Shown here one piece after another: positions 1 to 42,498 of a stretch of 62,539 nt of DNA. Numbering within the stretch: the stretch's first letter is position 1; each line of letters begins with the position of its first letter. The DNA is from a virus (Duplodnaviria; Heunggongvirae; Uroviricota; Caudoviricetes). The notes under the pieces are model-generated. The model made no database searches. It saw nothing but the letters and a program-made list of their open reading frames with translations, and was not told the DNA's origin. The translations under genes were made by a program, and so were the position numbers. Location of the stretch: the IMG/VR virus record IMGVR_UViG_2634166512_000005. The stretch is one strand, 5' to 3'.

Positions 1-678
1 TTATTCCTGTGCCCAGCCAACCCTGTATGCCAGGATCTCATCCGCACTGCTCAGCGATTCCAGGTCCTTCTTCATGGTGCGCTGGCGAATGTGGATTTCC
101 ATCCCTTTAGTGAACATCGCCTGCTCTGCCGCTTCACTCAGCGCAATAAGCTCTTCTGCTGTCACCGGCACATCATTGTTTTCCGCATCCGTCCAGAAAA
201 ACGCCTCCGGCAGTTTCCCCGCTTTCGCTGCCGCCACCGATGGCTCAAGACGCGTCTGCGTTGACTTCCCGTAGTCCCATTTCCGGCCATTGTGCTCAAA
301 CGTGTAGTTCGCCGCCTCCATCGCATTACGCCAGGTGTTTATTTCATCGCCCTTCATCCCGCGGGCTTTCTCCGCGGTCAGCAGGTCCGTGATTTTCTCC
401 CCGTCAAAGCCCCAGCGCCCCGAGATATCAGCTTTGCGGTTTTCTTCCGTATCCGCCACCTCCGCAACACTCTGATTCGCTGGCCACAGCGCCTGTACAT
501 CCCTGCTGATATCAGTGATAACCCCTGCTCTGTTATAAACCACTTTCAGCGTATCCGGCGAAAACAAGGGCTGACACTCATACCAGTCCTGACCATCCTC
601 TGATTTCAGGTACATCGCCCCCGGAACATCCGGATTTTCCGGCGTATACCAGATGAAGTTTTTTATATTTACCATCAT
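1..678 (-). CDS. tfa: tail fiber assembly protein
   Basis: ORF 1..738; EDGQDWYE...PDTLKVVY...ADISGRWGFDG pattern as in P2 gpG/TfaE-type chaperones; start placed at ATG 678. Confidence 0.7.
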   Translation of the reverse strand: MMVNIKNFIWYTPENPDVPGAMYLKSEDGQDWYECQPLFSPDTLKVVYNRAGVITDISRDVQALWPANQSVAEVADTEENRKADISGRWGFDGEKITDLLTAEKARGMKGDEINTWRNAMEAANYTFEHNGRKWDYGKSTQTRLEPSVAAAKAGKLPEAFFWTDAENNDVPVTAEELIALSEAAEQAMFTKGMEIHIRQRTMKKDLESLSSADEILAYRVGWAQE

Positions 679-686
679 TACCCCGC

Positions 687-899
687 TTATCGTTGCCCCG
701 CTTCTCTCCAGATCGGCATATTCTCCGGCCCCACACACCTCTCCATTCCTGCCGGGGCTGCACTGGCAGAAAAGACCTTATACACGGCACTCTCCACAAC
801 AACACTGTCTTCCGGCCAGCTTCCGGCAGCCTCATAAACCGAACGAAGCGAGGCCGGATAAAACGCATTATTTGATGGCGAAAAAAAATACTTTTCCAT
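687..899 (-). CDS. small hypothetical protein between stf and tfa (possible tfa N-terminal remnant)
   Basis: 70-aa ORF starting 10 nt after stf stop with RBS AGGAGGGAGA; no recognisable family. Confidence 0.3.
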   Translation of the reverse strand: MEKYFFSPSNNAFYPASLRSVYEAAGSWPEDSVVVESAVYKVFSASAAPAGMERCVGPENMPIWREAGQR

Positions 900-908
900 T
901 CTCCCTCC

Positions 909-2621
909 TCAGTAGCCAATAGCCTCCCAGTAAAACAGCCCGTATGTGTCCTTACTGACCGTCAGTATTACCGACTTCAGCAACGGTTCTGAAAGGGCAT
1001 ACCCCGTGAAATTTCCCGGTGAACCTACCGGTGATACAATGACATTCAGCGCCGCTGACGGAAAAGCTATCGGGAAATAGATGGTATGTGTGTCTCCTTC
1101 ACTGGTTGGCCGGACAACTTGTTTCTGCCCCCATTGCCGTATTCTTCCTGTTGCCTCATCCCGCTCCCATCCGTTCACATCCAGTTTCGCTGTTGAGGGG
1201 CGTCTGATGGAAGTGTAGTTAAACCGCCACTCATAGCTCTTTATACTGCCGCTGACCACGCAGGTGCAGTCCGTGCCATAAAACATATCCCAGGGCCGGT
1301 CATCACCTGCGCTGATCCGGACTATCGCATTCTCCCATGACCCCATCACTTCAATGGCGCATCCTCTCAGGGTGATTTTTTTCTTACCCAAATCAGTATC
1401 CACATCCGTGATCACACGGTTACTGTTGAGTAACCGCGTCGTGGTCATTACCCAGTAAGGGCCCTCAAAAGCACCCTGTGATTTCAGCCAGTTGATGAAC
1501 TCTTCTGTCGTCCACTCCCCTTCACCTGTTTTGAGATCACGCCCGTAAGCTCTTGCCACCCCAAGCTTACGAATAAACGCCTCCTTGTCGGCAATATCAT
1601 CCAGGCTGGCAGACTTCCCTGCCGGACCCGCTGGCCCCTGCGCCCCTCTCTCGCCTTTATCGCCCTTTGGCCCCGTCGCCCCCTGCGGCCCCACGGGCCC
1701 CGTTGCACCTCGCTCACCTTGCGGCCCCCGCTCACCGGCAGGGCCTGCCGGGCCGGGGTCACCTTTATCCCCTTTTACCCCCTGCGGTCCTCTGGGGCCG
1801 GTAGCGCCCTGTGGACCTCGTTCTCCGGGCTCGCCTTTTTTCCCCTCAGGACCGGCCCCCCCCGTCGGCCCCTGAGGCCCCGGCATCCCCTGCTCGCCCT
1901 TATCTCCACGGGGCCCCGCTTCTCCACGCGGCCCTGCGGGTCCCTGTGGACCAGCAGGCCCCCGGGGTCCTGCCGGGCCTCCCGGGTCTCCTTTATCACC
2001 TTTCGGTCCGACAGGCCCCTGCTCACCCCGTTCCCCCCGTGGCCCCTGCCCGCCGGTTTCACCACGCGGCCCGGCAACACCGGCCTCGCCCTTTGCGCCC
2101 TGAAGCCCCTGCGGCCCCCTCTCACCACGCTCACCCTTTGGCCCCCGCTCGCCGGTATCGCCTTTTGGCCCGGGAATACCCTGTGGCCCCGTGTCTCCCT
2201 TATCCCCCTTCGGTCCCCGCGCATTCTCTGCCCGTTTCTTCGCTTCCTCTGCACTCGCCGCTGACGCTTCCGCACGTTTCAGGATTTCCGCGGCCACCGC
2301 TTCCAGCTCTGCAAGGGCTTTCGGGTAATACTGTGCGTCCTCCAGGTCCATCAGAAATTTATTCAGCGTTCCCGGTGCAGACTCCGCCTTCACCAGAATG
2401 TCACCCACATATGACGGCGCGTACCCTTCCGTGTTCAGCGTCACCCGGTACAACCCCGGCTCAACATCCATACTGTAACTGCCGGTTTCCCCCGGCTGAC
2501 CATACGCCACCGTGGTGACAATCACCGTCTCCGTTGTGCGGCGCGCTTTCAGCTCTATCGTGCATCCCGGTACCGGCTTACCGGCCCCGTCCTTCAGCAC
2601 ACCCGATATTCTGACTGCCAT
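909..2621 (-). CDS. stf: side tail fiber protein with collagen-like Gly-X-Y repeat region
   Basis: 570-aa ORF; long uninterrupted G-X-Y run ([16 protein letters not shown]...); RBS GGAGG. Confidence 0.8.
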
Positions 2622-2633
2622 GGATTTCCTCCA

Positions 2634-2668
2634 TAAAAAAACCGCAGGACCGATTTCCCGGCCTGCGG
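2634..2668 (-). terminator. Rho-independent terminator just upstream of stf RBS
   Basis: minus-strand hairpin CCGCAGGCCGGGAAATCGGTCCTGCGG followed by T7. Confidence 0.55.
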
Positions 2669-2765
2669 TAAAATTTGTGATTTATTGATGTTAAAAAGGT
2701 GCCATCCGGCTGATCACCCTCAGCAACCGGTCGGCGGGGAAGGTACACTCCCCCGCCACGGTTTC

Positions 2766-2906
2766 TTACCGCTTACACTGTAAGAACGCCGCAATCTCCG
2801 CGCCCGCTATCCGGAACCGGAACTCGCACAGTGAACTGTGGGTGATCCAGATAATGAGCACTACCGTGATACAAATCACGGTGGTTTTTAACGGTTTTTG
2901 CGACAT
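2766..2906 (-). CDS. Hok/Gef-family type I toxin-like small membrane protein
   Basis: 46-aa ORF MSQKPLKTTVICITVVLIIWITHSSLCEFRFRIAGAEIAAFLQCKR (below the 60-aa ORF track cutoff); hydrophobic helix then SLCE-F-R...EIAAF signature of Hok family; overlapped out of frame by ORF 2773..3051 as mok overlaps hok. Confidence 0.5.
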   Translation of the reverse strand: MSQKPLKTTVICITVVLIIWITHSSLCEFRFRIAGAEIAAFLQCKR

Positions 2907-3104
2907 AACGCTTGCTCCTTTTACGGAGAGGCGCTAACCTTCTTCTTGCTGAAGGAAGAACGTCAGGCCTCGGGTTAAACATGAATGTTTTGTCCGGGGC
3001 CTTTTCACATCCGGCCTTCAGGTGTTCCCTCCGGCCATCAGCCAAAGGCACCCGCGCATACTGTACGGTTTTTGTCTCCTTCCGGCAATCCCGGGGCGCG
3101 ATGT

Positions 3105-6100
3105 TCAGCGGATACTGATCCCCGCGCTGTTTTTCTTCACCACTATCGCCTGAAGGTTACTGATTCGTGAACTGCCCCAACTGTTATTCTGACGCCGTGA
3201 GCTCACGGTAAAACTCAGGGTGATATGACCACCGCCAGCTGGCATATCGATGATCCCGCTGAAAACTCCCGGCTCTTCCACTGACCTGCCTGAATAAATC
3301 CGGCGTCCGTTCTGATCAACATGCAGGAAGCACTCTGTCCAGATGTCATTACTGGTGCGGGATTCCTGTTTTGACCCGACATAGATTATCGGCGGGATTA
3401 TAATCTGCCGGTCAAAGCTGTGATCGTCATACACCGTCAGCGTCCGTGTACCGTTCGCAAGGTAACTACCATCCACCGGAAAAGCCACCCCTGCACATTT
3501 CACCAGATCACCAATAATGTTCTCCGCTTTCAGCGTGCCATTTATCGTACAGTTCTCCGCTATCACGACATTATTGAGCGTGCCCGAGTTCGCACTGATA
3601 TGTCCGCTGATGTCAGCATTGCGGGCCGTCAGCCTGCCCTCCGGCGTCAGGGAGAACGTCGGGGGATTGCCGGACGAGGTGATACTCACTGCAAACAGTC
3701 GCTTCAGGAACACGTCGTTCATGAACAGCTGATTCCCCTGTGCCACAAACAGCGGCGTGGTGTTGCCGTTCTCCGGGGTAATCATTGCGATACGGTCCGC
3801 CTGCAGCAGAATATTGCTCAGCGTCTGGCCATCAGCATCCTCAATCCCCGCACCAATACCGGCAACATACGGAATGCCGTTTTTCGTTTTCTGCACCTTC
3901 AGCATGTACAGCGCTGCCAGCTCATCATTCGTGTCTGACTGGACCTGCTGTATCTGCTGTATGGTCGCGCTCTGGTCTTCCAGCTTTTTATCCGTGGTCG
4001 AGGTGATTTCACTCCCTTTGTCATCCACGTACTGGCGGACCTGCGCTATCTGCCTGGCGTTTTCCTCCGTGCTCTGGCTGACTGTCTGTGTGATTTCACT
4101 GCTCACCCGGTCCACCTGCTGACTCACCTGCGCGATGGCCAGCGTCTGGTCCTCATTCTTTTTCGCAACCAGCTGCGTGAGGCTGTTTTCCGCCTCCCCG
4201 ATTTTTCGGGTCACTTCCGCAACATCCGTCTCCAGCCGCTGGCGGATGTCTTCTTCCAGTTGCGTGACCTCAGTACGCAGGGCTGACGCATCAATACGCT
4301 CTTTCAGTGCCTTCCCCAGCAGCGCCTCATCTATCAGCCCACGGAAAATTTCCAGATACCCTTCACCATCATTGCTGGCCTGCCCGCTGGCCTCCACAAA
4401 CGCAGATTTCCCCACCAGGTTGACGCTGCGCACATAAAACCAGAAAATCCTTCCCCGGCTTAATGTGCGGACCGGAGACGCTCCACTGGCTGCCGGTACC
4501 CAGATAACGGGCAGAGGTTTCCACCTGTGCCGTGTCCGTGATGCGTTTTTCTGAGAACCAGAATTCATGCTGTACCGTCGGGTCATACACCGTAAGATGC
4601 GGGACCACCGTTATCTGATAATACCCCGGCGTCAGTTCAATGCTGGCCGGTGCTGCCGGTGCGTTAATCCGGAACGTGGTGGTGGCAGGTTCGCCCTGCT
4701 GGCCGTAGCTGTTTATCGCCCTGACCGTCAGGGTGTATTCCCCCAGAGGCAGGCCACTGAAACGGTGCTCCGTGTCGGCAGTGATGGCGCTGGTCACCAG
4801 GCGGCTGTTTTCACCGTTTCCGCTGGTCAGGCGCAGACTGAAGCGCACGCCCTTCACCCACCCGCGGCGTGTCCCATTTCGCCAGCGCCAGATACTGGCC
4901 GTCTGAGGCACTCACCTCCACCGTGAGGTGCTGCACTGCCGGCGGGATGACGCTGTTCAGTGAACCGGACAGCGGCTCAAAGCGGGCCCCGTTATCCACG
5001 ATGGCTTCTTTTTCCGGTACGTGCTGCACTGCCGTGATGGCAAAGGTGCCGTCCGTGTTTTCCCGGATGGAAACACAGCGGAACAGGCGACGACGCAGTG
5101 ACGGCAGGGAGAGTCCCCACACACCGTATGTCGCCACGCCATCAGGCAGAATGCTGACCTGTATCCGGTCAGGGGCGGGGTGTGCAGTGATGTCCACGCG
5201 CACCGGCTTACCGCTGCCGTTAATCAGGTTCACCGTCGATGTCCCTGTTTCCGGCAGTGTCACCTCCACGGTCCAGCGTCAGTGTGCGGCTGGCGGCATC
5301 GATGGACAGGATACGTCCGCCGGTCAGGGTCCCGGCATAGTCGTTATCACAGATTTCAATGATGTCACCGGGCGTGTGCCGCAGCCCCTGTGACCCGAGC
5401 GTGAAATCCACCGTCTGCGTTTCCAGCAGTTCGGTCTTTATCACCCACAGTCCGGCACGGTGAGCCTGACCGCGGCTGGTACAGCCGAACGCATCCATCT
5501 TCAGCAGGTTGCGCCCCGTAGCGCAGGATGGCGTCCGGGTCTTCCACCAGTTCCGTGACGTCTGCCAGCCGTTCTGCGGGTCAGTGTAATTCACCTCCAC
5601 CGCCGTGTGCCGTCCTTCAGGGCACTGAAGCTGTAGCGGAACCCCACCGCCGTTATCATCCACCACCACATCGCTGTTCGTGTACGGCCACACCACATCC
5701 GACGGGCGGTCCTGAACGAACGTCAGCGTCTGGCCGTTCCATACCGGCATACAGCGCATCGCCGAGCAGAAATCCCCCCAGGACATCCCAGACCTTTACG
5801 CTGCTGTTGACAGGTACGCATTGAAAGTCATCCGCGGCTCTGTTCCCCCGAAACCATCCGGGACCGTCTGGTTCGCAGTACTGGCCCGATGGCATACAGC
5901 GCCCACTTGTCCACATCCGCCGCCCCCCAGGCGTTTTCCCATCCCGTAGCGCGGGTGGGTCAGCATGTCCCACCAGGCACCAGGCCGGTTATTGCTGTAT
6001 GCGGTTTCAGACTCCCGTCCCAGATACCGCTGTAGGTGCGTTTTTCCGGGTCATAGTTTGACGGCACCTGAATGATGCGGCCGCGGATATGGTAGTTCAC

Positions 6101-6803
6101 CACCATCTGCTGGCCACCGAACTGCTCCGCATCCACCTGCAGCCCCACAATGGCCGTGTTCGGGTAACACTGTTTCACATCGATGATTTCGGTGTATGAC
6201 GACCACAGCGTTCTGTTCTGCAGCTGGTCCGTGGTACTGTCCGCCGTCACCCTGACCATCCGGATGTTAAAGGGGCGCTCAGGGAGATTATTCAGAATCA
6301 CCGACGTCAGGTACTGCGAGGTGGTCTTGCCGTTAATGGTGACATCCTTCTCCGTCACCCAGTTACCGTTACGCTCAAGCTGAATCAGCAGCCGGACAGA
6401 AGAGGGATTACGGTCACCCTTTGAGGTGGTCTCCCACCAGTGACTGCACCCCGAAGGTGACCCGCAGACGGTCAATGTTCGCTGACGTGATGGTGCGCGT
6501 CACCGGCTTTGCCTTCGTCACCTCCACGCCCAGTGCGGTTTCTGCCCCGGAGGACTCAAAGCCTTCCGGCGGTGTCTGCTCCTGCTCCCCGGCACGCCAG
6601 ACGGCGGTCACACCGTGTATCACGGGATTACCGTCCGTGTCCGTCAGCGGGGTTTTGTTCCACCAGAATACTCTGCAGTCCCTTCACCGGGCCTTCCACC
6701 GGTCCCTCACCGATGGCATCAATCACGCTCATCATCTGCGTGGATTTGAGATTGTCCTTCGCCTCACGCGCGGTGTGTGCCCCTTGCCGCCCCCTTTACC
6801 CAC
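3105..6803 (-). pseudogene. J: host specificity / central tail fibre protein J, broken by several frameshifts
   Basis: ORF fragments 3105..4586, 4369..4911, 4811..5269, 5220..5786, 5656..5973, 5960..6475, 6414..6623 are co-linear with the intact copy 17503..21189. Confidence 0.75.
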
Positions 6804-6872
6804 TCTGTCCCCCTCTCCTGTCTGATGTCTGGATCTGTTTAATGCCCAAAACAACAGCACCCCCCGGAGGGT

Positions 6873-7012
6873 GGCCTGTGTCATGACGGAATAAAATTTC
6901 TGAAATTCTCACATTTTTGCAAATACTGGTGGCGCTTATAATTATCCTGCGTTACCATTTTTTTCCGTGACATAATAATTCCTTACAGTTAATCTTCGTA
7001 TCTCTTCTTGGA
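6873..7012 (+). promoter_or_regulatory. remnant of I-J spacer cassette (promoter TTGCAA..TATAAT) cut at the deletion junction
   Basis: matches 21263-21398; the terminator hairpin is replaced by cro-like sequence from 7013. Confidence 0.4.
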
Positions 7013-7100
7013 GGTGATACACCTAAAAGCTTAGCCATTGCTGATTGCCACCGACAACAGCACAAGCTCGTTTGAATGAATAGTTCTCTCTTTGTTTCAT
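7013..7100 (-). pseudogene. 5' remnant of ydaS/cro-like gene (about 29 codons)
   Basis: matches 55985-56074; carries an in-frame 3-nt difference from copy 2 (MKQRENYSF vs MKKENYSF). Confidence 0.45.
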
Positions 7101-7228
7101 CGAATGAACTCCCAAAAAACACACAATAAATATTAGGCTGCGCCTAACATTATTGTCAATAGGCTGTGCCTAACACACTAAAGGTAGGGATTGGCCTAAT
7201 GCGATGCGCATAGGAGGCTATTAAAGCA
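7101..7228. promoter_or_regulatory. OR-like operator/promoter region
   Basis: three TTAGGC-N3-GCCTAA-type inverted repeats (TTAGGCTGCGCCTAA, TAGGCTGTGCCTAA, TTGGCCTAAT) between divergent cro-like and repressor genes. Confidence 0.45.
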
Positions 7229-7704
7229 ATGCTTAGTGGTAAAGACTTAGGCGAGCGATAGAGCAGGCCATTAAACAAAAAAATTGCATCAGGAGCCGTC
7301 AAATCAAAGGCGAGATCGCACGCCATTTCAACGTCCAACCACCATCAATTCATGACTGGATGAAGAAAGGTTCAATAAGTAAAAACAAACTTCCAGAACT
7401 ATGGGCTTTCTTTTCTGATGTAGTTGGTCCAGAGCATTGGGGCCTTAACAAATACCCCATAACCACCCCTTCCAGTTCAGATACAAACGGTGCACTTTCA
7501 AACATAAACAGCCTTTATCAAGCCGCCTCTGATGAAAAAAGAGCAATTGTAGCTTTCCTCTTATCTTGGAATGCTACGGAACCTGGTTGGGTTGATCATG
7601 ACGTTCGCGCCTACATTGCTGCTATGGAAATGAAGGTAGGTAACTACTTGAAAAATCAAGAATCAGAACGAAAAAGCCAGAACATCACCAAGACAGGAAC
7701 TTAG
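7229..7704 (+). pseudogene. RacR-like prophage repressor, frameshifted near the 5' end
   Basis: three 1-nt indels relative to 56199..56675; ORF 7360..7704 keeps the C-terminal 114 aa. Confidence 0.5.
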
Positions 7705-8016
7705 ACTTATATGGTCCGACGGGAAACGCCTAGATCCCGTTAGTTAACTCCTATTACCTCTCCCACATACCATTGTCTATTAGGTTGCACGCAAAACATT
7801 AGGCATAGCCTATTGACAACAGATTAGGCATTACCTATAGTTCCCCATGCCACCCCGCCCCACAGAACGCCAGGCAATACTTCGAGTTACCCGGCAGTGG
7901 TCAGGGGTTAAGTAGCCAGCCCGAGGCGTATGAACATGACGGCGGGAACACTTTTGTATAACAGCGCAGCAGGTTTTTAGTTCCGCGCCCCGGCGTTAAG
8001 GGGGAATGAGGTCAAC

Positions 8017-8169
8017 ATGGATACGCTCAATCTTGGCAACAACGAATCTCTGGTATGCGGCGTGTTTCCCAACCAGGACGGCACGTTTACCGCGATGACG
8101 TATACCAGAAGCAAAACGTTTAAAACTGAAGCTGGCGCGCGTCGCTGGTTAGCCAGAAACACTGACTGA
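8017..8169 (+). CDS. YdaF-like small protein
   Basis: 50-aa ORF MDTLNLGNNESLVCGVFPNQDGTFTAMTYTRSK..., RBS GAGG; resemblance to Rac YdaF is recalled, not searched. Confidence 0.45.
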   Translation: MDTLNLGNNESLVCGVFPNQDGTFTAMTYTRSKTFKTEAGARRWLARNTD

Positions 8170-8180
8170 TGAGGTTGACG

Positions 8181-8540
8181 ATGGAATTTAAAGATTTACC
8201 AGTACCATTCCAGGAAATGGCAGCGAATATAGTTCGTTCTCAACTGGCGACTCTTGACCTGAGTACCGTAGAAAAAGAAACCATCGATAATATATCCGGT
8301 AACGTGCGTCGAACCTTTATCGGGCTGTACGAAGAAAAGTGGCCATTCGGCGGACAAAATTCGCTTGAAAACAAGAATCAAGCGAATGATGAGAAGCTGA
8401 AACACGTTATCGCCTTACTACTGGAAGATGCAAAACGTCTACAGCAACTGGAACCAAATGCAGGCACCGAAGCCCGCATCTGGATTGCCATAAAATCACT
8501 CAAATGTGAAAGCGATGATTATTTAATAAACCATAATTAA
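8181..8540 (+). CDS. hypothetical early protein
   Basis: 119 aa from MEFKDLPVPFQ; coupled to the upstream ORF stop. Confidence 0.5.
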   Translation: MEFKDLPVPFQEMAANIVRSQLATLDLSTVEKETIDNISGNVRRTFIGLYEEKWPFGGQNSLENKNQANDEKLKHVIALLLEDAKRLQQLEPNAGTEARIWIAIKSLKCESDDYLINHN

Positions 8541-9176
8541 AACAACTCAGCTTTCTGAAGAGCTACCGAAGAAATTGCCATAATAATATGTTTTCTTATA
8601 GAGGGGTTAGAAATATGGGCCAGCATTATAGCAGCCCCATATAACAGAAAGTATTTTAAATATTACGCCGTATCTTGTGATTGTTTTTTAATATATTCAT
8701 ACAAGCGCACAAGTTGTTTCAACTCTTCAAAGCACATCGCGGAATTTTCAATTTTTCCGGCGTTGATTAGTGCCAGAAGAGCCTGATGTGCGCAAGCATA
8801 TGGATCATTACAGGGCTAATAATATCAACTTGCATATTATCCTCTATAGAGGTTCCGGGTTAATGATGGAGACCAACACGCTGTCACGTGTGGTCGTGTG
8901 CGGACACGGATAAGAATCCGGCACTGACAGTTTGCTGAAAGGATATTTCCCTGAAAAGTCAGGGCATAACACGAAAGCGCACGGCGAAGTTAGTCTCTCT
9001 GTACAGGTCGTCGTTAAATGTAATTCGATCATGCGCTTCCGGTTGTGGCAATCCGCGAAATGGCGCGGCGGTAAGTATGGCTGGGGTTTCCTCCATTGCT
9101 CCAGAAAATGCACCGGGTTGTCAGGTTGACCATACGCCTGAGTGACAACACCGCCACAACAACCTCTGTTATCACT

Positions 9177-9215
9177 TTTCTGGTGATTCGGCGGAAATGG
9201 ATATCCGCCATTTTT
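9177..9215 (+). ncRNA. dicF: DicF-like small RNA (short form)
   Basis: UUUCUGGUGA 5' segment then GGCGG...CCGCC hairpin and U5; sits upstream of dicB as in the Qin dicBF operon. Confidence 0.5.
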
Positions 9216-9392
9216 AAAGTGTATTTTGTGATGCGGTGAATGCGGCTAAGCGCACGCGGAACAGTTAAAACAAGCGGTCTTTTACTGGCGTAACAGACAT
9301 CAACTAACAATCCGGCGTTAATTGTTAACTGGTTAACGTCACCTGGAGGCACCAGGCACCACATCACAAAATTCATTGTTGAGGACGCGATA

Positions 9393-9581
9393 ATGGAAAC
9401 GTCACTACCAAACGTTAATACGTCTGAAGGGTGTTTTAATATTGGTATTCTGCTCAGTAACCGGGAGTTTACTGAGGACGCCATCAGGATGAGAAAATAT
9501 GAGCCTTATCTTCTCAATGATAATTCCATACTCTCCAGAATTGCCCTTCTTGAACTTGGCATTTTCGGAGGGCAGCAGTGA
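9393..9581 (+). CDS. dicB: cell division inhibitor DicB
   Basis: 62 aa, METSLPNVNTSEGCFNIGILLSN... Confidence 0.75.
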   Translation: METSLPNVNTSEGCFNIGILLSNREFTEDAIRMRKYEPYLLNDNSILSRIALLELGIFGGQQ

Positions 9582-9868
9582 GTTCAGCGTTTGCACTGAT
9601 GATGACGGTTTTTCTTATAACAGGTGAGCCACAGAATGTGATTACCGGAATTTATGCCAGTAAAGAATCCTGCCATCAGGCAAGAGACGAGCAAAAAATT
9701 TCCGGTGAATGTCTCCCGTTAAACAAAGTATCGCTGTACCTGAATACGAAATACCGGCTGGATAACCCGCCAGCCATATTAACGCCATACCCGTTGATTA
9801 AGTATGCCAGCAATGGCAGGGATTCGTACAACCTTAAAATAGTTATGAGGTTTATCAATGAGCACTGA
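9578..9868 (+). CDS. ydfD: YdfD-like lysis protein, 3' end read-through after a 1-nt deletion
   Basis: [19 protein letters not shown]...; copy 2 terminates at ...NNEIPAG. Confidence 0.5.
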
Positions 9869-12262
9869 TAAAGAAGAAATTGCACTGTATTACGAAGCCA
9901 AAAATGACAAAGTCAGAAAACGCCTTGGGATTAAAGGCGGTTTTTACTGGCGCACAGCAAAAAAATTATCGGTTGCAATATCACGGGGTGTTGTCGCAAT
10001 GGACGATGCTGGATTTGACGAAGAGGATTTCAAAAAACCTGTTCGCGTGAATTTGCCCATTGTTAATGACCTGCCGCCTGAAGGTGTGTTTGATACCGAA
10101 TTCTGCAACCGCTATGAAAAAGGTGGAGAAGATGGCATCACAATGATATTTATAGCGCCTTCCCCCTCAGTTCAGGACAAACCAGCCAGCACTGACAATA
10201 CCAACGTCAATGGCGAAGACATGGCTGAGATTGAGGATAATATGCTCCTGCCGATTTCCGGTCAGGAACTGCCCATTCGCTGGCTTGCGCAACATGGCAG
10301 CGAAAAACCGGTAACGCACGTTTCACGGGAAGAACTTCAGGCATTACATATCGCACGAGCTGAAGAACTGCCTGCTGTTACTGCCCTGGCTATTTCCCAC
10401 AACACAAAGCTGCTCGACCCGCTGGAGATTCGCGACCTTCAAAAACTGGTACGCGACACAGACAAAGTTTTCCCTAATCCCGTTAATTCCAGTCTGGGGT
10501 TAATGACTGCTTTTTTCGGAAGGCATACCTGGACGCTGACTATACCGATCGAGGTCTGCTGACAAAAGAGTGGATGAAAGGAAATCGTGTTTACGCATCA
10601 GCCGCACGCGCATCCGGCGCTAATGCTGGCGGAGGAATTCTTACCGATCGCGGTGAAGGTTTTGTCCACGATGATGCGTCAGTGGAACGTGACGTTGCCG
10701 CTGGCGTTCTGGCCCGTTCAATGGACATCGATATTTACAATCCACATCCGGCACACGCCAAACGCATTGAAGAAATCGTTTCAGAGAATAAGCCGCCCTT
10801 TTCTGTTTTTCGTGACAAATTCATCGCCATGCCTGGTCACCTGGATTATTCCCGCGCGATAGTGGTTGCATCCGTGAAAGAAGCACCAATTGGTATCGAG
10901 GCTACTCCCCACCGTGTTACCGAATATCTGAACAAAGTACTGACCGAAACCGACCATGCCAACCCTGATCCAGAAATCGTGGATATTGCCTGCGGTCGCT
11001 CCTCTGCTCCAATGCCGCAGCGTGTAACAAAAGAAGGAAAACAGGATGATGAAGAAAAACCGCAGCCAACTGGCGCAATGGCAGATGAACAGGCAACGAC
11101 TGAAGCAGTGGAACCGGATACAACTGAACATAATCAGGACACGCAGTCGATGGATGCTCAGCCACAGATAAATTCTGTTGATGCGAAATATCAGAAACTG
11201 CGTGCAGAACTCCATGAAGCCAGGAAAAACATTCCCCCCAAAAATCCTGTCGATGCAGATAAATTACTGGCTGCTTCTCACGGAGAATTTGTTGAAGGGA
11301 TTAGCGATCCGAATGATCCGAAATGGGTGAAGGGGATTGAAACCCGCGATTCTGTGAACCAGAACCAGCACGAATCGGAACAAAACGAGCCGGAAACGAA
11401 ACAGCCTGAACCAGAAGAGCAACAAGAACCGGAAAAAGTCTGCACCGCCTGCGGTCAGATCGGCGACGGCAACTGTCCTGACTGTGGCGCGGTAATGGGC
11501 GACGCAACATACCAGGAAACATTCAACGAAGAAAGCCAGGATGAAGCCCGGGAGAAAAGATCCAGAGGAAATGGAAAGTGCCGTATACCCGAACAAGGAG
11601 TGCTCCGAAGGCGATCAACATGCCAATGGCAATAATGAAACAGGCGAGACAGCAAATCCCTTAATTAAGGTGAACGGTCATCGCGAAAGCACATCCACCA
11701 GCAGGTTGTGGCACCATCTGATGATTGACCTTGAAACAATGGGCAAAAATCCTGATGCGCCAATAAACGCTCTGGCCGGTAAGTTTTTTGATCCGGCAAC
11801 CGGAGAGATGGGGCCAGAATTCAGCAAAACTATCGATCTGGAAACCGCGGGCGGAGTCATCGATCGGGACACCATTAAGTGGTGGCTGAAACAGTCACGG
11901 GAAGCACAATCAGCCATTCTGACCGATGAAATCCCGTTGGATGACGCACTGTTGCAATTACGGGAATTTATCGACGAAAACTCCGGTGAATTTTTTGTTC
12001 AGGTCTGGGAAATGGAGCCAACTTCGACAACGTGATTTTACGCCGTTCATATGAACGGCAGGAGATCCCCTGCCCGTGGCGTTACACCAATGATCGTGAT
12101 GTAAGAACGATTGTTGCCCTGGGGCTGGTGATGGATTTCGATGCTCGAAGTGTCATCACATTTGAGGGTGAACGCCATAATGCCCTGCACGATGCGCGTT
12201 ACCAGGCAAAATACGTTTCAGCTATCTGGCAAAAACTGTTCCCGAATCAGGCTGATTTTTAA
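9858..12262 (+). pseudogene. large exonuclease-like early protein (DEDDh C-terminal domain), split into four ORFs
   Basis: ORFs 9858..10562, 10574..11635, 11541..12035, 12032..12262 are co-linear with intact 58831..61233. Confidence 0.65.
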
Positions 12263-12328
12263 TGTTCAACCCATATCGCCGCCCACCAGCTATAGTGGCG
12301 GCGGTCATGCTGTAAGGCACGTGACCAC

Positions 12329-23800: not shown

Positions 23801-26800
23801 TCAGCATTCCTCCGTCACGACGCATGGATAACATCACCGCCTGTACCCTCTGGTCTATCAGTTGCACAAGGGTGCCCGCCGCTTCCGGCCCTATCTGCCC
23901 GTTAGCGCCGTCATTCTGAATGGCGATGTGGTACACCGGGGAATACACCAGACCCGCACTGCCGTTCATGCGGCCCACCGCACGCACGCCGAGTGAACCA
24001 TCCGCTGCCCGGGTCAGGGGCATGATGGCTTCAGGTCCGGCCTCCCCCATCAGCCCTGCCCCTTTTGCAAAGGCAAAGTACGTGGGCGTGTCCACAATAC
24101 TGTTACTGTATGCACTCAGGTTTGCCGAGGTATAAACGCCGCCTTTTGCATTTGCCACCGCGCCACCCAGCCAGTTGCCTATACTGCCGAAAAATCCTCC
24201 TGCACCGGACATACTGTTTGCCGCCATCTTAATGCCGTTGACAATGGCCGCATTCATAAGAACTTTTGATATTTCCTGCAGGATTGATGCAGCCCAGCTG
24301 CGCCATTCCACTTTATTTCCGTTCAGCATCTCCGTGATGTTATTCACCATCCCTGAGATACCGTCTGTCGCAAGCTGTGCTGCCTGTGAAGCGTAATCTG
24401 ATGCGCTGTCCACCCAGTTACTTAGCCCTTCCTGCAGCCCTTTCTGCCAGTCAGCACGCTGCGCATCCGATTCGGCATAAAAAGCCTCCTGGTCTTTCAG
24501 TCGTTCACTCAGATACTGCGCATTCTGCGCCAGCGCCTGTCTGTAAAAATCCTCACTGATATCCCCTGTCTGATACTGAGACTGCAGGTCCGCATCCTTC
24601 TGGCGGTAGCCGTCACGAATCTGCTGCAGCTCCCGCATCCGTTCACGGACCCGCTCACCCTGCCCGTACCCCAGCAGCTCAGCGTCATTTGATGCCCTTT
24701 CGTCTGCATTATCATTTTTCAGAGCCTCCTCCCGGGCCCGTAACTGCTCCCGGATTTTCTTCTGGTCAATCAGGGCAGCATTGCGCAGCAGCTCCTGCTT
24801 CTGTATCTCCGTCAGGGTTTTCAGCTCGCCCTGCGAGGTCTGGTATTTCAGTTTTGCCAGTTCTGTATTCTTCCCGGCCAGTGCCAGTTGTTCCTTCTGC
24901 TGCTTCAGCAGACGGGAAAAACTGTCTTCCGCTTTTTCCGCCCCTGATTTTCCGGCCCGGGATTTGGGTTTATTCGCCTCATTATTGCGCCAGGCTTCCA
25001 TCGAATTACGGATGTAACGCTGCCTCGCCTCCTGATACGTATCCCCCACCAGACCAAGGTCATCCGCCGCATACCCCAGCCGGGCACGCTCTTTTTCTTC
25101 CCCTTTCAGCCGGGACAGGGCAAGTTGACGCTCTGTGTTATTCAGGGCGCCCTGCTGTTTATCATCCAGAGTGGCCTGTGGCAGTCGCAGCGGTACACTC
25201 GCCAGTCCCTGACGCTGTTGCAGCAGTTCATTACCCAGCCCCAGCAGGCGGTTGAATTCCGTATGCTGACCGTTCATGATCAGCAGTGACTGATACGCTT
25301 TATTCTGCTCTGCCGCCTGCTGACGAATTAACACAACACGGCGCTCTTCCAGTCCGGCAAGCACATCCTGAATGGACTGCGCTTTTTCCTGCATCTGTGC
25401 CAGACGGGACTGCTCAACAGCAAACTGCTCTGTTGCCTGAGCAAGCTCTTCCGTTACAGTTTTCACCGATGTCAGATGGTTTATCATGAAGCCGTTACCG
25501 GTCGTCCAGCCCGGATTAGCCAGCACATACTGATACCCGGCGATTTTTTCCTGCAGGGATTTCACCCGGCTGGCCTGCTCATCAATCAGCCGGTTCTGCT
25601 CTGTCAGCGCCTCCCGTGTTCGCCCTTCATTATCTGAGGCTTCAGGCAGAGACATTGATGGCGTTTTATGCGCGATTTCATCAATCGTCAGTGCATACTG
25701 GTGCGCAGACTCCCTGGCCTGTTCCTGATTCTGGTACAGCGTGTACCATGCGGCAGCTCCCAGCATCACCAGTCCGGGTACGCCTCCAATCAGTCCCAGC
25801 GCACCGCTCATCAGACGTGAGCCCACCGCCGTTGTACTGTTCAGCGCATTCTGGGCGGCGGTTCTGGCAGCAATATTTCTGTTCAGGCGTTCCTGTGTGA
25901 CCGCCAGACGGGCCTCTGCGGCAATCTGCATCTCAGTCCCGCGGGCTGCCGCCACAGCCTGCTGAGCCCGGTACACGGCTGCCCTTGCCCGCGCAGTGGC
26001 AATCTGCGTTCCCCTTAACTGGGCCTCAGCCAGTGCCACTTCATTACGTGCAGCGGTCACAAGTCCTGCCGTGGCAGACATCGCTCCGGAAGCCAGATTA
26101 CCAAAGTACCGGGCGACCCCGACAGCAACCAGCACACCCGCAGCTGTTGCCACGGTATCAATATTTCCGGCCACACCGTTCAGCGCGCCGGAGAGCGTTT
26201 TCGTCGCTCCGCTGGCCTCATTCGCGCCGCCCACCCAGGCCATAAAGGCGTTTTCCACCTTCGTGATACTACCGGAAACCGTTTCCGGCATGGCTGCATA
26301 TTCATCACGCAATATCCCCAGCTGGCTGATTAACGCGGGAACGACTTTATCCGCCGTCAGTTGACCATCGTCCGCCATCGCCTTCAGATCCTTACGGGCC
26401 ACGCCCATGCCTGCAGCCAGTGCGCGAATGATCCGGTCCCCACTTTCATTGACCGAATTAAATTCCTCGCCGCGCAACACCCCCTGTGCCAGCGCCTGGC
26501 TGAACTGGGTGATCACCGAACCCGCATCTGCCGCACTGGCACCGGAAATTTTCAGCCCTGTCGAAATGGCCTCCGTCACCTTCAGCACATCATCAGCACT
26601 GTAACCATATTCACGCATTGAGGCGGCAGAGCGGGCAAACAGGGCCGCATTATCCGAAAATGCGGTGCCTGTCCGCTGGCTGATATCCATCAGCACTTTC
26701 TGTGATGACGCAAATTCATCCGATGACTGCGACGCCTGTTTCAGACGGGCATTCACGGAGCTCCATTCATCCGCCAGCGAAATCAGGTGTCCGGTGGCAA

Positions 26801-39300: not shown

Positions 39301-39774
39301 TTAATTCAGGCACTGAGTGCGGATATATTCCTGAAGCGTTCTCAATGCGGCCTGATCGCTGATGATTCCGTCTCTGATACCGAGAACGTTTCGTCCAGCA
39401 ACTGGAGAGAGTTCGACGGAGGCATCATTGCCCACGCCGGAGGTGGTGGGGGCTTCACGCACGGTACCGGAGCTGGTGGCGTTGATCCGCAGGCGCTTAC
39501 GACCAGCGGCAACATCAGCACGCAGAGTTTCATTTTCAGCTCTCGCATCGGCTAATTCCCTCGAGTATTTTGCATCGAGCGCAGCAACATCGCGCTGGCG
39601 CACCTGCATATCAGTAATGGTTGCGTTTGCCTGCTCCAGCTCTCTGGCTTTTTTATCGCGCTGCGCTTTGTAGGTGATAGCGTTATCGCGGTAATGATTC
39701 AGCCCCAGACTAAGCGCACCACAGACCACCAGCAGAATAACGGTAAACGCGGAAAGCATTCGGTTTATGCTCAC
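39301..39774 (-). CDS. Rz: i-spanin Rz
   Basis: [45 protein letters not shown], lambda Rz-like. Confidence 0.9.
39342..39533 (-). CDS. Rz1: o-spanin Rz1 lipoprotein, embedded in Rz
   Basis: [17 protein letters not shown] then Pro-rich; +1 frame inside Rz. Confidence 0.8.
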
Positions 39775-40255: not shown

Positions 40256-40789
40256 TTATCTGTCGATTCCCCAGCACGCCAGCGCGCTCTCCTGGTCACG
40301 ACGGGATATCTGGCCGTAACAGTTGTTTGAGCGGATCCGGCAGTCTCTGCCACCGTCCTTAATCCACCAGCGAATCGCTTCACACGCTCCCCTGCGATCG
40401 CCTGCATTAATTCGTTTATAAAACGTCGACGGGAAACACTTACCGGGGCCAATGTTATACGGGCAGAATGACGCAATACCCGCTTTCTGGGGTTCAGTCA
40501 GTGGCACTTTGATGTTTTTCTCCACCCATGCCAGCGCCTTATCACGCTCAATGGCGTTAACCTGGTCGCATTTTTTCTTCGACAACTTCATGCCCGGGAC
40601 GACAGGTTTGCCATCCACCCTGGTGGCACCACGACAAATGGTCCAGATACCCGCACCATCACGGTATGCCGTGGTGTGGTTACCTTCTTTTTCATCCAGA
40701 AACTGGTCGAGAATATCAGGCGCAGGCGCCCCTGCGGCAATCAGCGCCAGAACGGCAGCCGACAGGCTGTATTTGATTTTGGTGTTCAT
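40256..40789 (-). CDS. R: SAR endolysin (phage 21 R-type lysozyme)
   Basis: 177 aa; N-terminal signal-anchor then lysozyme fold. Confidence 0.9.
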   Translation of the reverse strand: MNTKIKYSLSAAVLALIAAGAPAPDILDQFLDEKEGNHTTAYRDGAGIWTICRGATRVDGKPVVPGMKLSKKKCDQVNAIERDKALAWVEKNIKVPLTEPQKAGIASFCPYNIGPGKCFPSTFYKRINAGDRRGACEAIRWWIKDGGRDCRIRSNNCYGQISRRDQESALACWGIDR

Positions 40790-40919
40790 GGATATTTATC
40801 AGGATTTATCGGTTCCGAATCCCTGGATATGTTAAGCCTTCACCCCACCAGTGGTGGGCACTGGCGGGTTCTTAATTTCCCCGGATGATCGTGGATTACA
40901 TTCCACCAGGAGATTACTT

Positions 40920-41551
40920 ATGCTTATCTATCCAGCGGCAGACCTCCGTTTACAGGGACGCAGAGCACAACCATGGGATAAAACAACCACTCATAAATAT
41001 CGTCCCGGTCAATATTATGACTTTCGTAAACACCCGGAACTGATCGAGACACACCTTGAGGATTTTGTTGAATATTCAGACAGACAAGCGATTCAGACCT
41101 TTTTTCTTTTGTTAAGTGGATCAACAGCAATTCATCTGCATTCGAGAGCACGGACTGCATGTTTTCAGGAACACCAAAGGTTGATGAATACGCCCCGGTA
41201 TTTGGTTGCCCCCATGCGTCATCTGGCCGCTTCGAATTTTTGTTTCGCGATACGAAAATAAACCAAAATGAGCGAGCTGTCGGATGGGTACTTAACAAAC
41301 TATCGCTCTACCTTCAGAAAGAACGGCCCGATTTTTGTAAAGGAACCTTTGGCATCGTTCCCCTCATGACGGAATATACCGACTCCGGCGGTAACGAGTT
41401 CACCGGTTATCGTATTTGTGTCTATTTCGATGCTTACGGGAATGGAACAGAGGATACCTGGACTTCTCTCAACATCATGTTTGATGGCCTCATGAAAGCC
41501 ACCAAAAGAATGAGCAATGAAACAATCACTGGCGAGATGCGTCCCCTTTAA
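40920..41551 (+). CDS. opposite-strand cargo gene of unknown function between pinholin and endolysin; needs a frame change in a T-run near 41125
   Basis: ORFs 40851..41261 and 41159..41551 overlap in adjacent frames; RBS AGGAG before ATG 40920; plus-strand terminator at 41576-41598; no family recognised. Confidence 0.4.
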
Positions 41552-41575
41552 AAAATTATCCAGAATCTCACTATT

Positions 41576-41598
41576 TGCAGAGCGCTCTCTGTTTTTTT
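41576..41598 (+). terminator. Rho-independent terminator after the cargo gene
   Basis: CAGAGCGCTCTCTG followed by T7. Confidence 0.5.
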
Positions 41599-41788
41599 GA
41601 ATACGGAAACACTCTGCGAGATTTCTGCTCATCACTTTCCGACAATAATCGTCAAACGCAGCAAACTGCTCATCGCGGCGTTTGTTTGCATCTTCAGAAG
41701 GCATCAGCGCCGACAGTTTTTTATTCAGTTCAGCAATTTCATTTTCCAGACGACTGAAGCGCTGATTCATTTCTTCATGGTTCATCAC

Positions 41789-42004
41789 CTACTCTCCCCG
41801 TGCCGCCTTACGCCGGTCTTCTCTGATTTTGAAATACAGGTTCGTCAGATATGTCAGCAGCCCAAACAGCAGACTCCCCAGCACGCCTATTGCCGCCCAC
41901 TGAGACGGGGAAACCCTGTCCAGCAACTGCAGGAACCAGTAGCCCGTTCCCACCGCTGACGTGGTGTATGACACACCTGTTGTGATTTTTTCCATCTGGT
42001 ACAT
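41789..42004 (-). CDS. S: pinholin (phage 21 S-type)
   Basis: [71 protein letters not shown]. Confidence 0.9.
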
Positions 42005-42498
42005 ACCCCGTCTCCCGCAATCCGGAAGCTCACAACATGAAAAAGGCCGCCAGTGCTCCACTGACAGCCTCGTGTAGTTACTCTGAGTGCTCAACAATTC
42101 CCTGTAAAACGTGTTGACATTAAGAATCGCTTTTGTGTAGAAAATTTACCAATATAACAATAAAACCTCACCGCAGTTGCATTTCCACCAGAAGCATGAC
42201 GCATTTCTCCCTGTGCTTACTGGTGGATTTTTTTACCCCGCAAATACCGCTGACACATATTGATAATAAGAATATTTTTCATTTAAAAACACTCACTGCA
42301 CCATTTCTTCGGAGTGTCCATGGCGCTCCCCCACCAGTCGCTTACGGCAACTGGCGTTTTTTAATTTCTTACCGTTATTATTGACAACAGGAAGTGTTTT
42401 CATTAAAAAGAAGGCTCTGCACGAAAGAATCTTGCTTTTGTATTTCCATGGGTATTAGCACCGCCAGCGTCTATTCCTGTCGCTGGCGGCTTTTTTTA

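Follow-up and report, generated by a model that had tools for sequence, protein, structure and literature searches.

In Stx phages, host regulation is rewired by the sRNA genes that flank nanS-p (AsxR, STnc100/PasD/Esr055, and PasA/PasC). Esr41 (EcOnc14), which resides in SpLE1/OI-43, is an Hfq-dependent RNA of about 70 nt that carries a GC-rich palindrome and a poly(U) tail; in EHEC O157 it pairs directly with chuA, cirA, and bfr and represses them, and it also has effects on ler/LEE and on fliC (PMC5286369, PMC7873438, PMC8565820). PasA and PasC were validated as Hfq-dependent sRNAs in EPEC E2348/69 by Pearl Mizrahi et al. (PMC8550237). PasA is transcribed from 743499 to 743415 of NC_011601 (with a minor form ending at 743264), antisense within the esterase-holin interval, and PasC, a 78-79 nt RNA, is transcribed from 1290909 to 1290832 and ends 2 nt from the esterase stop codon; their EHEC homologues are EcOnc51 and EcOnc52 (PMC8550237). 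Zhu, Shabalina and Storz mention that cmscan matches to Esr41 are frequent near PasD (bioRxiv 10.64898/2026.05.13.724894).

The DNA analyzed here (the window) is a 62,539-nt stretch of a Caudoviricetes genome, in which the late region of a Stx2 prophage occupies the minus strand. From gene context, this region includes stx2A (45246-46205), stx2B (44965-45234), the endolysin gene (40256-40789), and Rz (39301-39774). The nanS-p gene (42499-44463) encodes a 654-aa SASA-type sialate esterase, annotated in RefSeq as 'SASA family carbohydrate esterase', and is separated by a 494-bp spacer from the gene of a P21 S-type (pinholin-class) holin, which starts at 42004 (PF04971, E=9e-33). The original prediction had placed a terminator-like hairpin in the spacer between NanS-p and the pinholin, and the identities of the flanking 654-aa esterase ORF and P21 S-type holin bear this location out. 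At gathering thresholds, Rfam models matched the window at STnc100 (44675-44890, minus strand), one sok RNA, and three tRNAs, with nothing at the hairpin site, and a literature search by the locus tags ECs1207/1208 and Z1466/1467 returned no RNA described there. The spacer contains three plus-strand promoter-terminator modules in tandem, of which the third (unit 3) is intact, proximal to the esterase gene, and ends in the hairpin. We consider it probable, at odds of roughly three to one, that the hairpin is the terminator of a self-contained gene for an Esr41-like sRNA of ~84 nt, which would probably act in trans. This reading builds on the observed structure, non-randomness, conservation, and fixed position of the element, and on its homology to Esr41. 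A trans-acting sRNA is preferred to an antisense regulator of S because of this homology, and because the unit occupies the slot of PasC and EcOnc52.

The hairpin spans 42461-42489 of the plus strand, as identified by sequence, fold energy, and a whole-window scan. It reads CCGCCAGCG-TCTATTCCTGT-CGCTGGCGG, with a 9-bp stem (CCGCCAGCG/CGCTGGCGG, seven G:C pairs) and an 11-nt loop, and is followed by a C and by TTTTTTT, which ends at 42497. As RNA, the stem folds at -20.2 kcal/mol, compared to -11.5 +/- 2.6 for dinucleotide shuffles (z -3.4), and none of 200 shuffles matched its fold energy. A scan of the entire 62.5 kb, counting both strands, for perfect stems (8 bp or more) with a T-run behind them gave four sites, this hairpin among them, against 0.05 expected from Markov simulations. 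A generic terminator scanner reported only a 5-pair stem, because its loop limit of 8 nt is exceeded by the 11-nt loop. The minus-strand version of the stem has A7 on its 5′ side and UGCUAAUACCC on its 3′ side, and the T-run is present on the plus-strand side only; the absence of a U-tract from the minus-strand stem makes this a one-way, plus-strand terminator, and rules out a bidirectional or late-strand one. The hairpin and U7 thus have the layout of a Rho-independent terminator (a GC-rich stem-loop directly 5′ of a U-tract on the transcribed strand), and constitute, as originally predicted, a plus-strand intrinsic terminator; it is strong, real, and non-random. The U7 tract (42491-42497) is the predicted termination point, at which transcription would be expected to end, and the expected Hfq-binding 3′ tail. 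A single nucleotide separates it from the stop codon of nanS-p (42499-42501, minus strand).

A TTGACA hexamer is located at 42381-42386 (+), about 75 nt upstream of the hairpin and ~30 nt ahead of the position where the RNA is predicted to begin. This putative -35 element is invariant among the aligned homologues (13/13 and 21/21), and nhmmer aligns it with the TTGACA upstream of true Esr41. Beginning 17 bp past it, a -10-like TAAAAA (42404-42409, +) is aligned with the -10 elements of the homologues, matching TTAAAA/TAAAAA in Sp5-type units and TTATAT/TATATA in Esr41. The -10 of unit 3 is weak, as it lacks the T at position 6, and is weaker than that of Esr41; a simple promoter scanner skipped it because the scanner requires this T. 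Judging from these motifs, unit 3 would have promoter activity of the sigma-70 type.

The family profile, the Rfam model, and the fold together delimit a predicted Esr41-like sRNA of ~84 nt, at about 42414-42497 (+), whose 5′ end was placed about 7 nt past TAAAAA, to within +/-3 nt. The predicted RNA folds at -26.3 kcal/mol (z -2.5). Both the MFE and the centroid structures contain a 5′ stem-loop formed by ACGAAAG and CUUUUGU (42421-42441, +). Sequences read by eye suggested possible 5′ hairpins at the corresponding place in Esr41 (GAUGC/GCAUC), in FORC_043 (CAU/AUG), and in the variants v4 and STEC1590 (GAUG/CAUC, with different loops). The UCCAU core (42445-42449, +) is single-stranded between the two hairpins, and its conservation makes it a candidate seed: the T, C, A, and T do not vary, and conservation of the other C is at least 90%, in Esr41, the Sp5-type and FORC_043-type units, and units 2 and 3 of the window. 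A protein-coding reading was discarded; the plus-strand ORFs at 42394-42573 (59 aa) and 42133-42384 (83 aa) matched no Pfam family.

According to the proposed mechanism, the sigma-70-type promoter (TTGACA, 17 bp, TAAAAA) would fire against the late operon, and would produce an ~84-nt RNA consisting of the 5′ stem-loop, a U/C-rich stretch with UCCAU, the GC-rich terminator hairpin, and the U7 tail. The hairpin and U7 would halt polymerase a single nucleotide short of the stop codon of nanS-p, which would keep antisense transcription out of nanS-p and stx2. The terminator would also supply a hairpin and oligo-U 3′ end, of the type used by Hfq-dependent sRNAs, and by analogy with Esr41, and with PasC and EcOnc52, both of which were found experimentally to be Hfq-bound, the RNA may bind Hfq. 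The linker with its UCCAU core would, by homology, base-pair with targets in trans.

A permissive Rfam scan of 41900-45000 returned one extra match, to Esr41 (RF02676), in which model positions 1-74 of 74 were aligned to 42425-42497 (+). At 22 bits (E=0.44), this match fell far short of the gathering score, which is 102 bits; the VT2-Sakai copy of the unit, likewise aligned to the full model, scored 30.9 bits (E=0.041), and true Esr41 from SpLE1 of Sakai scored 108.6 bits. A comparison independent of Rfam was provided by a family profile built from 30 Sp5-type units, with the variant of the window left out. In nhmmer searches, this profile matched unit 3 (E=6e-27), and also the Esr41 locus (L140, 1213-1323) from the -35 to the U-tract (profile positions 4-124, E=2.9e-6). 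The unit is, by this measure, homologous to the Esr41 gene, and blastn of the VT2-Sakai unit against the same locus gave 77.8% identity over 63 nt (E=1e-5). Pairwise alignment to Esr41 gave z values of 7.2-7.8, with 0 of 500 shuffles scoring as well, compared to 3.3-5.1 for PasA, PasC, and EcOnc52. The 5′ halves alone were also significantly similar to Esr41 in v4 (z 5.3) and Sp5 (z 3.7), and marginally so in the variant of the window (z 2.3, 27 of 1000 shuffles). Two pairs of the terminator stem differ from those of Esr41, one through a double change (G:C to A:U) and the other through a single change (A:U to G.U).

The likeness to Esr41 extends over the whole gene, and includes the TTGACA promoter, the 5′ stem-loop, the U/C-rich linker with UCCAU, and the terminator (CCGCC.GC/GC.GGCG with U7), for a length of about 74-84 nt. 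Unit 3, at a predicted ~84 nt, also fits the published description of an RNA of ~70 nt that has a GC-rich palindrome at its 3′ end and a long poly(U) (PMC8565820). It differs from Esr41 in lacking the middle hairpin, in a 5′ region extended by ~10 nt, and in a weaker -10. Whereas Esr41 is found in SpLE1/OI-43, between z1181 and z1182, unit 3 adjoins the esterase gene in the late region of a Stx2 prophage, between nanS-p and the holin gene; a search for an esterase relic beside true Esr41 found none. We conclude, on sequence grounds, that unit 3 is a diverged paralogue of Esr41 in another genomic context. The linker reads UAUUUCCAUGGGUAUUAGCA in the window, UUUUCUCCAUGGGGUAUUCCC in Esr41, and UUUUCUCCAUAGGUAUUACCA in Sp5; the targets of the window unit may differ, as its linker differs from both of the others. 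Likewise, the targets of Esr41 are not to be assumed for unit 3, because the putative seed is UAUUUCCAUGGG rather than the UUUUCUCCAUGGGG of Esr41. Targets within the window were considered and rejected: the 14-mer complementary to the linker had 12 matches with up to 3 mismatches (one of them at the start codon of R), against 5.5 +/- 2.3 expected, and the duplexes predicted with the translation start regions of the late genes (-15 to -21 kcal/mol) did not exceed those with random segments of the window (mean -20.5).

Copies of unit 3 are widespread. A set of 5,426 complete E. coli genomes contained 1,593 copies, spread over 721 of them; identity was about 80% for most, and an esterase-type CDS was overlapped by 39 of 40 sampled copies. 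Phage records that carry the unit numbered 227, among them VT2-Sakai, VT1-Sakai, and many Stx1a, Stx2a, and Stx2c phages. In VT2-Sakai (24618-24755, just 3′ of the esterase gene ECs1207) and eight sampled genomes, it occupies the ~135-nt gap between the esterase stop codon and a DUF1378 gene, always in antisense orientation; the DUF1378 gene is on the late strand in these other phages, and is absent from the window. The Sp5 and Stx1-phage copies are identical, and the Sp5 and Sp15 copies apparently are as well. The esterase-adjacent units are likely the source of the Esr41 cmscan matches near PasD. As a whole, the spacer of the window is rare, being covered to at least 80% in 35 of the 5,426 genomes, and a megablast search with the whole spacer matched no phage record. 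Strains 89-3156, 2011C-3911, and RM7190 are among those that have it, at >=99.5%.

Sequence variation was assessed among 31 distinct variants, which were collected from an IMG/VR pattern scan and from genome loci. The constant features are TTGACA with its spacing, a UCCAU core, a run of T6-T8, and the 7-bp core of the stem (CCGCCAG/CUGGCGG); the loops and 5′ body are variable. The search pattern used for part of the set fixed TGTTTTCATT and TTTTTTATCAT, so the conservation of these two motifs is biased in the IMG/VR set; the loci derived from BLAST carry both motifs as well. A pattern search of genome contigs was too loose, and among the matches listed only a Shigella flexneri locus was real, the others being chance matches. 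RNAalifold, applied to the unit with its promoter, predicted long-range pairs that were spurious and left the shorter hairpins misaligned; the terminators were therefore folded one by one. All 31 variants and Esr41 form the terminal hairpin, at -11.6 to -20.2 kcal/mol. Stem pair 8 is C:G, U.G, or U:A among the variants, with a G-A mismatch in one minor variant. As read from these alignments, the covariation of the stem is real and sparse, and is limited by the invariance of the 7-bp core. An invariant core in otherwise diverged units suggests selection on the sequence as well as on the pairing, and might reflect overlap with a seed, as reported for PasA. Separately, the 3′ arms of the terminators of unit 3 (CGCTGGCGG, 42481-42489) and unit 1 (ACTGGTGG, 42220-42227) are each one mismatch from Chi, the octamer GCTGGTGG.

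These patterns bear on the possibility that unit 3 is a non-expressed relic carried along with the esterase gene, or that the hairpin acts on the late strand instead, for example as a stabilizer of the nanS-p mRNA 3′ end. The weak -10 would fit a relic, the neighboring unit 2 illustrates that such units decay, and no Hfq-CRAC peak was reported at the Sp5 or Sp15 copies (Tree et al. 2014). In a late-strand role, the stem would form just past the nanS-p stop codon. However, the -35, spacing, UCCAU core, stem, and U-tract persist across ~1,600 copies and 31 variants, and their retention, while the loops and 5′ body drift, fits selection on a plus-strand gene; the late strand, moreover, is without a U-tract. 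As for the Hfq-CRAC data, we speculate that multi-mapping among the Sp5, Sp15, and Stx1-phage copies, which are or appear to be identical, might have concealed a peak. A relic or a late-strand element is improbable.

A cis-antisense RNA acting on the late mRNA, through pairing in the nanS-p-lysis intercistronic region or through convergent-transcription interference, would be proposed to affect late-mRNA processing, stability, or read-through towards S and R. The antisense orientation noted in the original prediction was upheld, in that the terminator is on the plus strand and the late genes on the minus strand, and the late transcript, immediately 3′ of nanS-p, would pair with an RNA from unit 3 without a mismatch. 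Where the spacer has its usual form, with a DUF1378 gene, there is overlap between the promoter and the 5′ UTR of that gene, which is on the opposite strand. RIL-seq chimeras joined PasA to the esterase 3′ end (PMC8550237), and a cis-antisense repressor of an endolysin gene is listed for a Pseudomonas phage in a review (PMC12197685). The more specific suggestion, that the antisense RNA runs across the S promoter region, was not sustained. The S start codon is at 42004, and ~410 nt lie between it and the beginning of the predicted RNA (42414-42497), which ends before nanS-p and overlaps neither a translation start nor a known promoter. Given this distance, the RNA would stay clear of any S promoter region. 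Transcripts that begin nearer S would arise only by read-through from units 1 or 2, and these would run away from it. We are aware of no S promoter, and none is evident; S is read from the late transcript. Moreover, the seed is not complementary to the translation start regions of the late genes above background, and the homologue Esr41 acts in trans (PMC5286369) and is located in SpLE1, where no esterase or lysis gene lies on the opposite strand. Regulation in cis is considered very unlikely.

The position of unit 3 is that of the Pas RNAs. Like PasC and EcOnc52, it is antisense between a SASA esterase gene and a holin gene, with its terminator against the esterase stop codon; it also resembles them in size (~79-85 nt), in the TTGACA promoter and A-rich -10, in the tandem arrangement of units, and in a terminator of the GCCAGCG...CGCTGGC-U7 type. 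PP2 and Sakai Sp12 contain two tandem units each; in Sakai Sp4, the unit next to the esterase gene is EcOnc52. The spacers of the window, PP2, and Sp12 further share a late-strand hairpin ahead of the P21-type holin gene (see below). The sequences, by comparison, are scarcely related. Blastn of PasA, PasC, EcOnc51, and EcOnc52 against the window gave no match at word size 28, and only chance-level 10-14-mers at word sizes 11 and 7. The family profile reached PasC (E=0.5) and EcOnc52 (E=1.5) over the terminator portion only, the 5′ parts of Sp5 and v4 gave z<0 against PasC, and Esr41 was clearly the better relative. Under the definition of Zhu et al. (2026), more than 75% of the query must be similar to PasA or PasC in blastn; unit 3 falls outside it, because it has no significant similarity beyond the terminator. 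Unit 3 is a positional counterpart of PasC/EcOnc52 that would work as PasC does, and not a PasA/PasC variant as defined by BLAST; that it should be a sequence variant of the PasA/PasC (EcOnc51/52) family is very unlikely.

Other prophage sRNAs of the 'moron region', the convergent pair formed by the anti-sRNAs AsxR/AgvB and STnc100/PasD/EcOnc27, are similar in having intrinsic terminators and, for some, an orientation antisense to the late operon. They differ from unit 3 in lying between stx2B and nanS-p and in their unrelated sequences, with no Rfam match to them at unit 3. An identity with AsxR/AgvB was rejected, as AsxR lies 282 bp 3′ of stx2B, which corresponds to about 44,610-44,676 of the window, and Rfam gave no AsxR/AgvB match. 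At that position, which is the AsxR position of Sakai Sp5, a plus-strand terminator (AGCCGCTCTTCCCAGGAGCGGTT and T8, 44646-44668) is convergent with STnc100. No match to the Rfam models of AsxR or AgvB was found at 44600-44676 (+), even at E<1, and this segment may be a different variant of the anti-sRNA type.

The remainder of the spacer records the history of the array. Unit 1 (42114-42234, +) contains TTGACA at 42114-42119, a 13-pair stem at 42184-42227, and T7 at 42228-42234. It folds at -20.5 kcal/mol (z -3.1), has a full-length but marginal similarity to the family profile (E=0.01), and is intact but rare, being present in 61 of the 5,426 complete E. coli genomes. Unit 2 (42260-42362, +) appears to be a decayed tandem paralogue (nhmmer E=5.6e-8), with a -35 of TTGATA (42260-42265), a 5-bp stem (CCAGU/ACUGG, 42334-42354), a T6 tail, and a weak terminator (-9.3 kcal/mol). 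FORC_043, SI-NP020, GE3, and STEC1590 have a two-unit spacer in which the second unit, the counterpart of unit 2 of the window, adjoins the esterase gene and is intact, with TTGACA and a CCGCCAGU/ACUGGCGG terminator. In the window, the T-run of unit 2 is joined to AATTTCTTACCGTTAT, the sequence found 5′ of the Sp5-type unit in other phages. The decay of the -35 and stem of unit 2, and the fusion of its T-run to AATTTCTTACCGTTAT, point to a recombinant spacer, in which an Sp5-type unit 3 would have been gained on the esterase side while the older unit 2 was decaying. Esr41 itself may at one time have belonged to a tandem array of this kind, as hinted by its flanking sequence: just 3′ of Esr41 (L140, 1350-1376), TTTCCACCAGAAACATACCTCGTTTCT resembles the 5′ arm of the unit 1 terminator (81% over 27 nt; E=0.13, not significant).

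Outside the predicted sRNA, a terminator-like hairpin is present on the late strand (42038-42071; 13 pairs, U5; -20.8 kcal/mol, z -4.7), about 35 nt upstream of the S start. Its sequence is kept upstream of the P21-type holin gene in PP2 of E2348/69, in Sakai Sp12, and in 5 of 5 related spacers, and it could stop non-antiterminated read-through from nanS-p/stx2 from reaching the lysis genes in lysogeny. The holin and endolysin genes, which are normally adjacent, are separated by a 162-aa ORF without a Pfam family (41300-41788, minus strand) and by ~500 bp of additional DNA (40790-41299), probably a moron insertion; strain 89-3156 has a RefSeq 'hypothetical protein' at the corresponding site. 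The window also contains direct repeats of 99.5-99.6% identity (1-7007 and 14403-21393; 7007-13568 and 55983-62539). The two repeated segments are contiguous at 1-13568, and their second copies flank the ~34.6-kb Stx2 prophage body (21393-55983), which looks like a truncated prophage copy in tandem with a full one, or like an assembly or recombination product. Within the repeat copies, 4208-4251 and 18606-18649 (+) have a weak similarity (E about 0.08) to the portion of the family profile that covers the terminator, and possibly represent another CCGCC-type terminator.

Nothing in the result for unit 3 challenges current understanding. It adds an unannotated Esr41-like gene to the cluster that flanks nanS-p, and, by homology, the same would apply to Sp5 and 933W-type phages. 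More tentatively, and at slightly less than even odds, Esr41 may be one member of a large, undescribed paralogous family at the esterase/lysis junction of lambdoid prophages. The proposed family would amount to about 1,600 copies in 721 of the 5,426 genomes, including the Sp5 and Sp15 Stx phages, and its copies escape both the very strict Esr41 threshold of Rfam and the BLAST-based Pas surveys. The three-unit spacer illustrates how such units duplicate at terminator junctions, and then decay. If expressed, the Sp5 and Sp15 versions, whose linker (UUUUCUCCAUAGG) all but matches that of Esr41, could be redundant with Esr41, which would touch the control of iron uptake, LEE, and motility, and the phenotypes of esr41 deletions in EHEC may be buffered by these phage-borne paralogues. 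The version in the window, with its altered linker, would have a shifted target set, and carriage of the Stx2 phage would be tied to host regulation in lysogeny.
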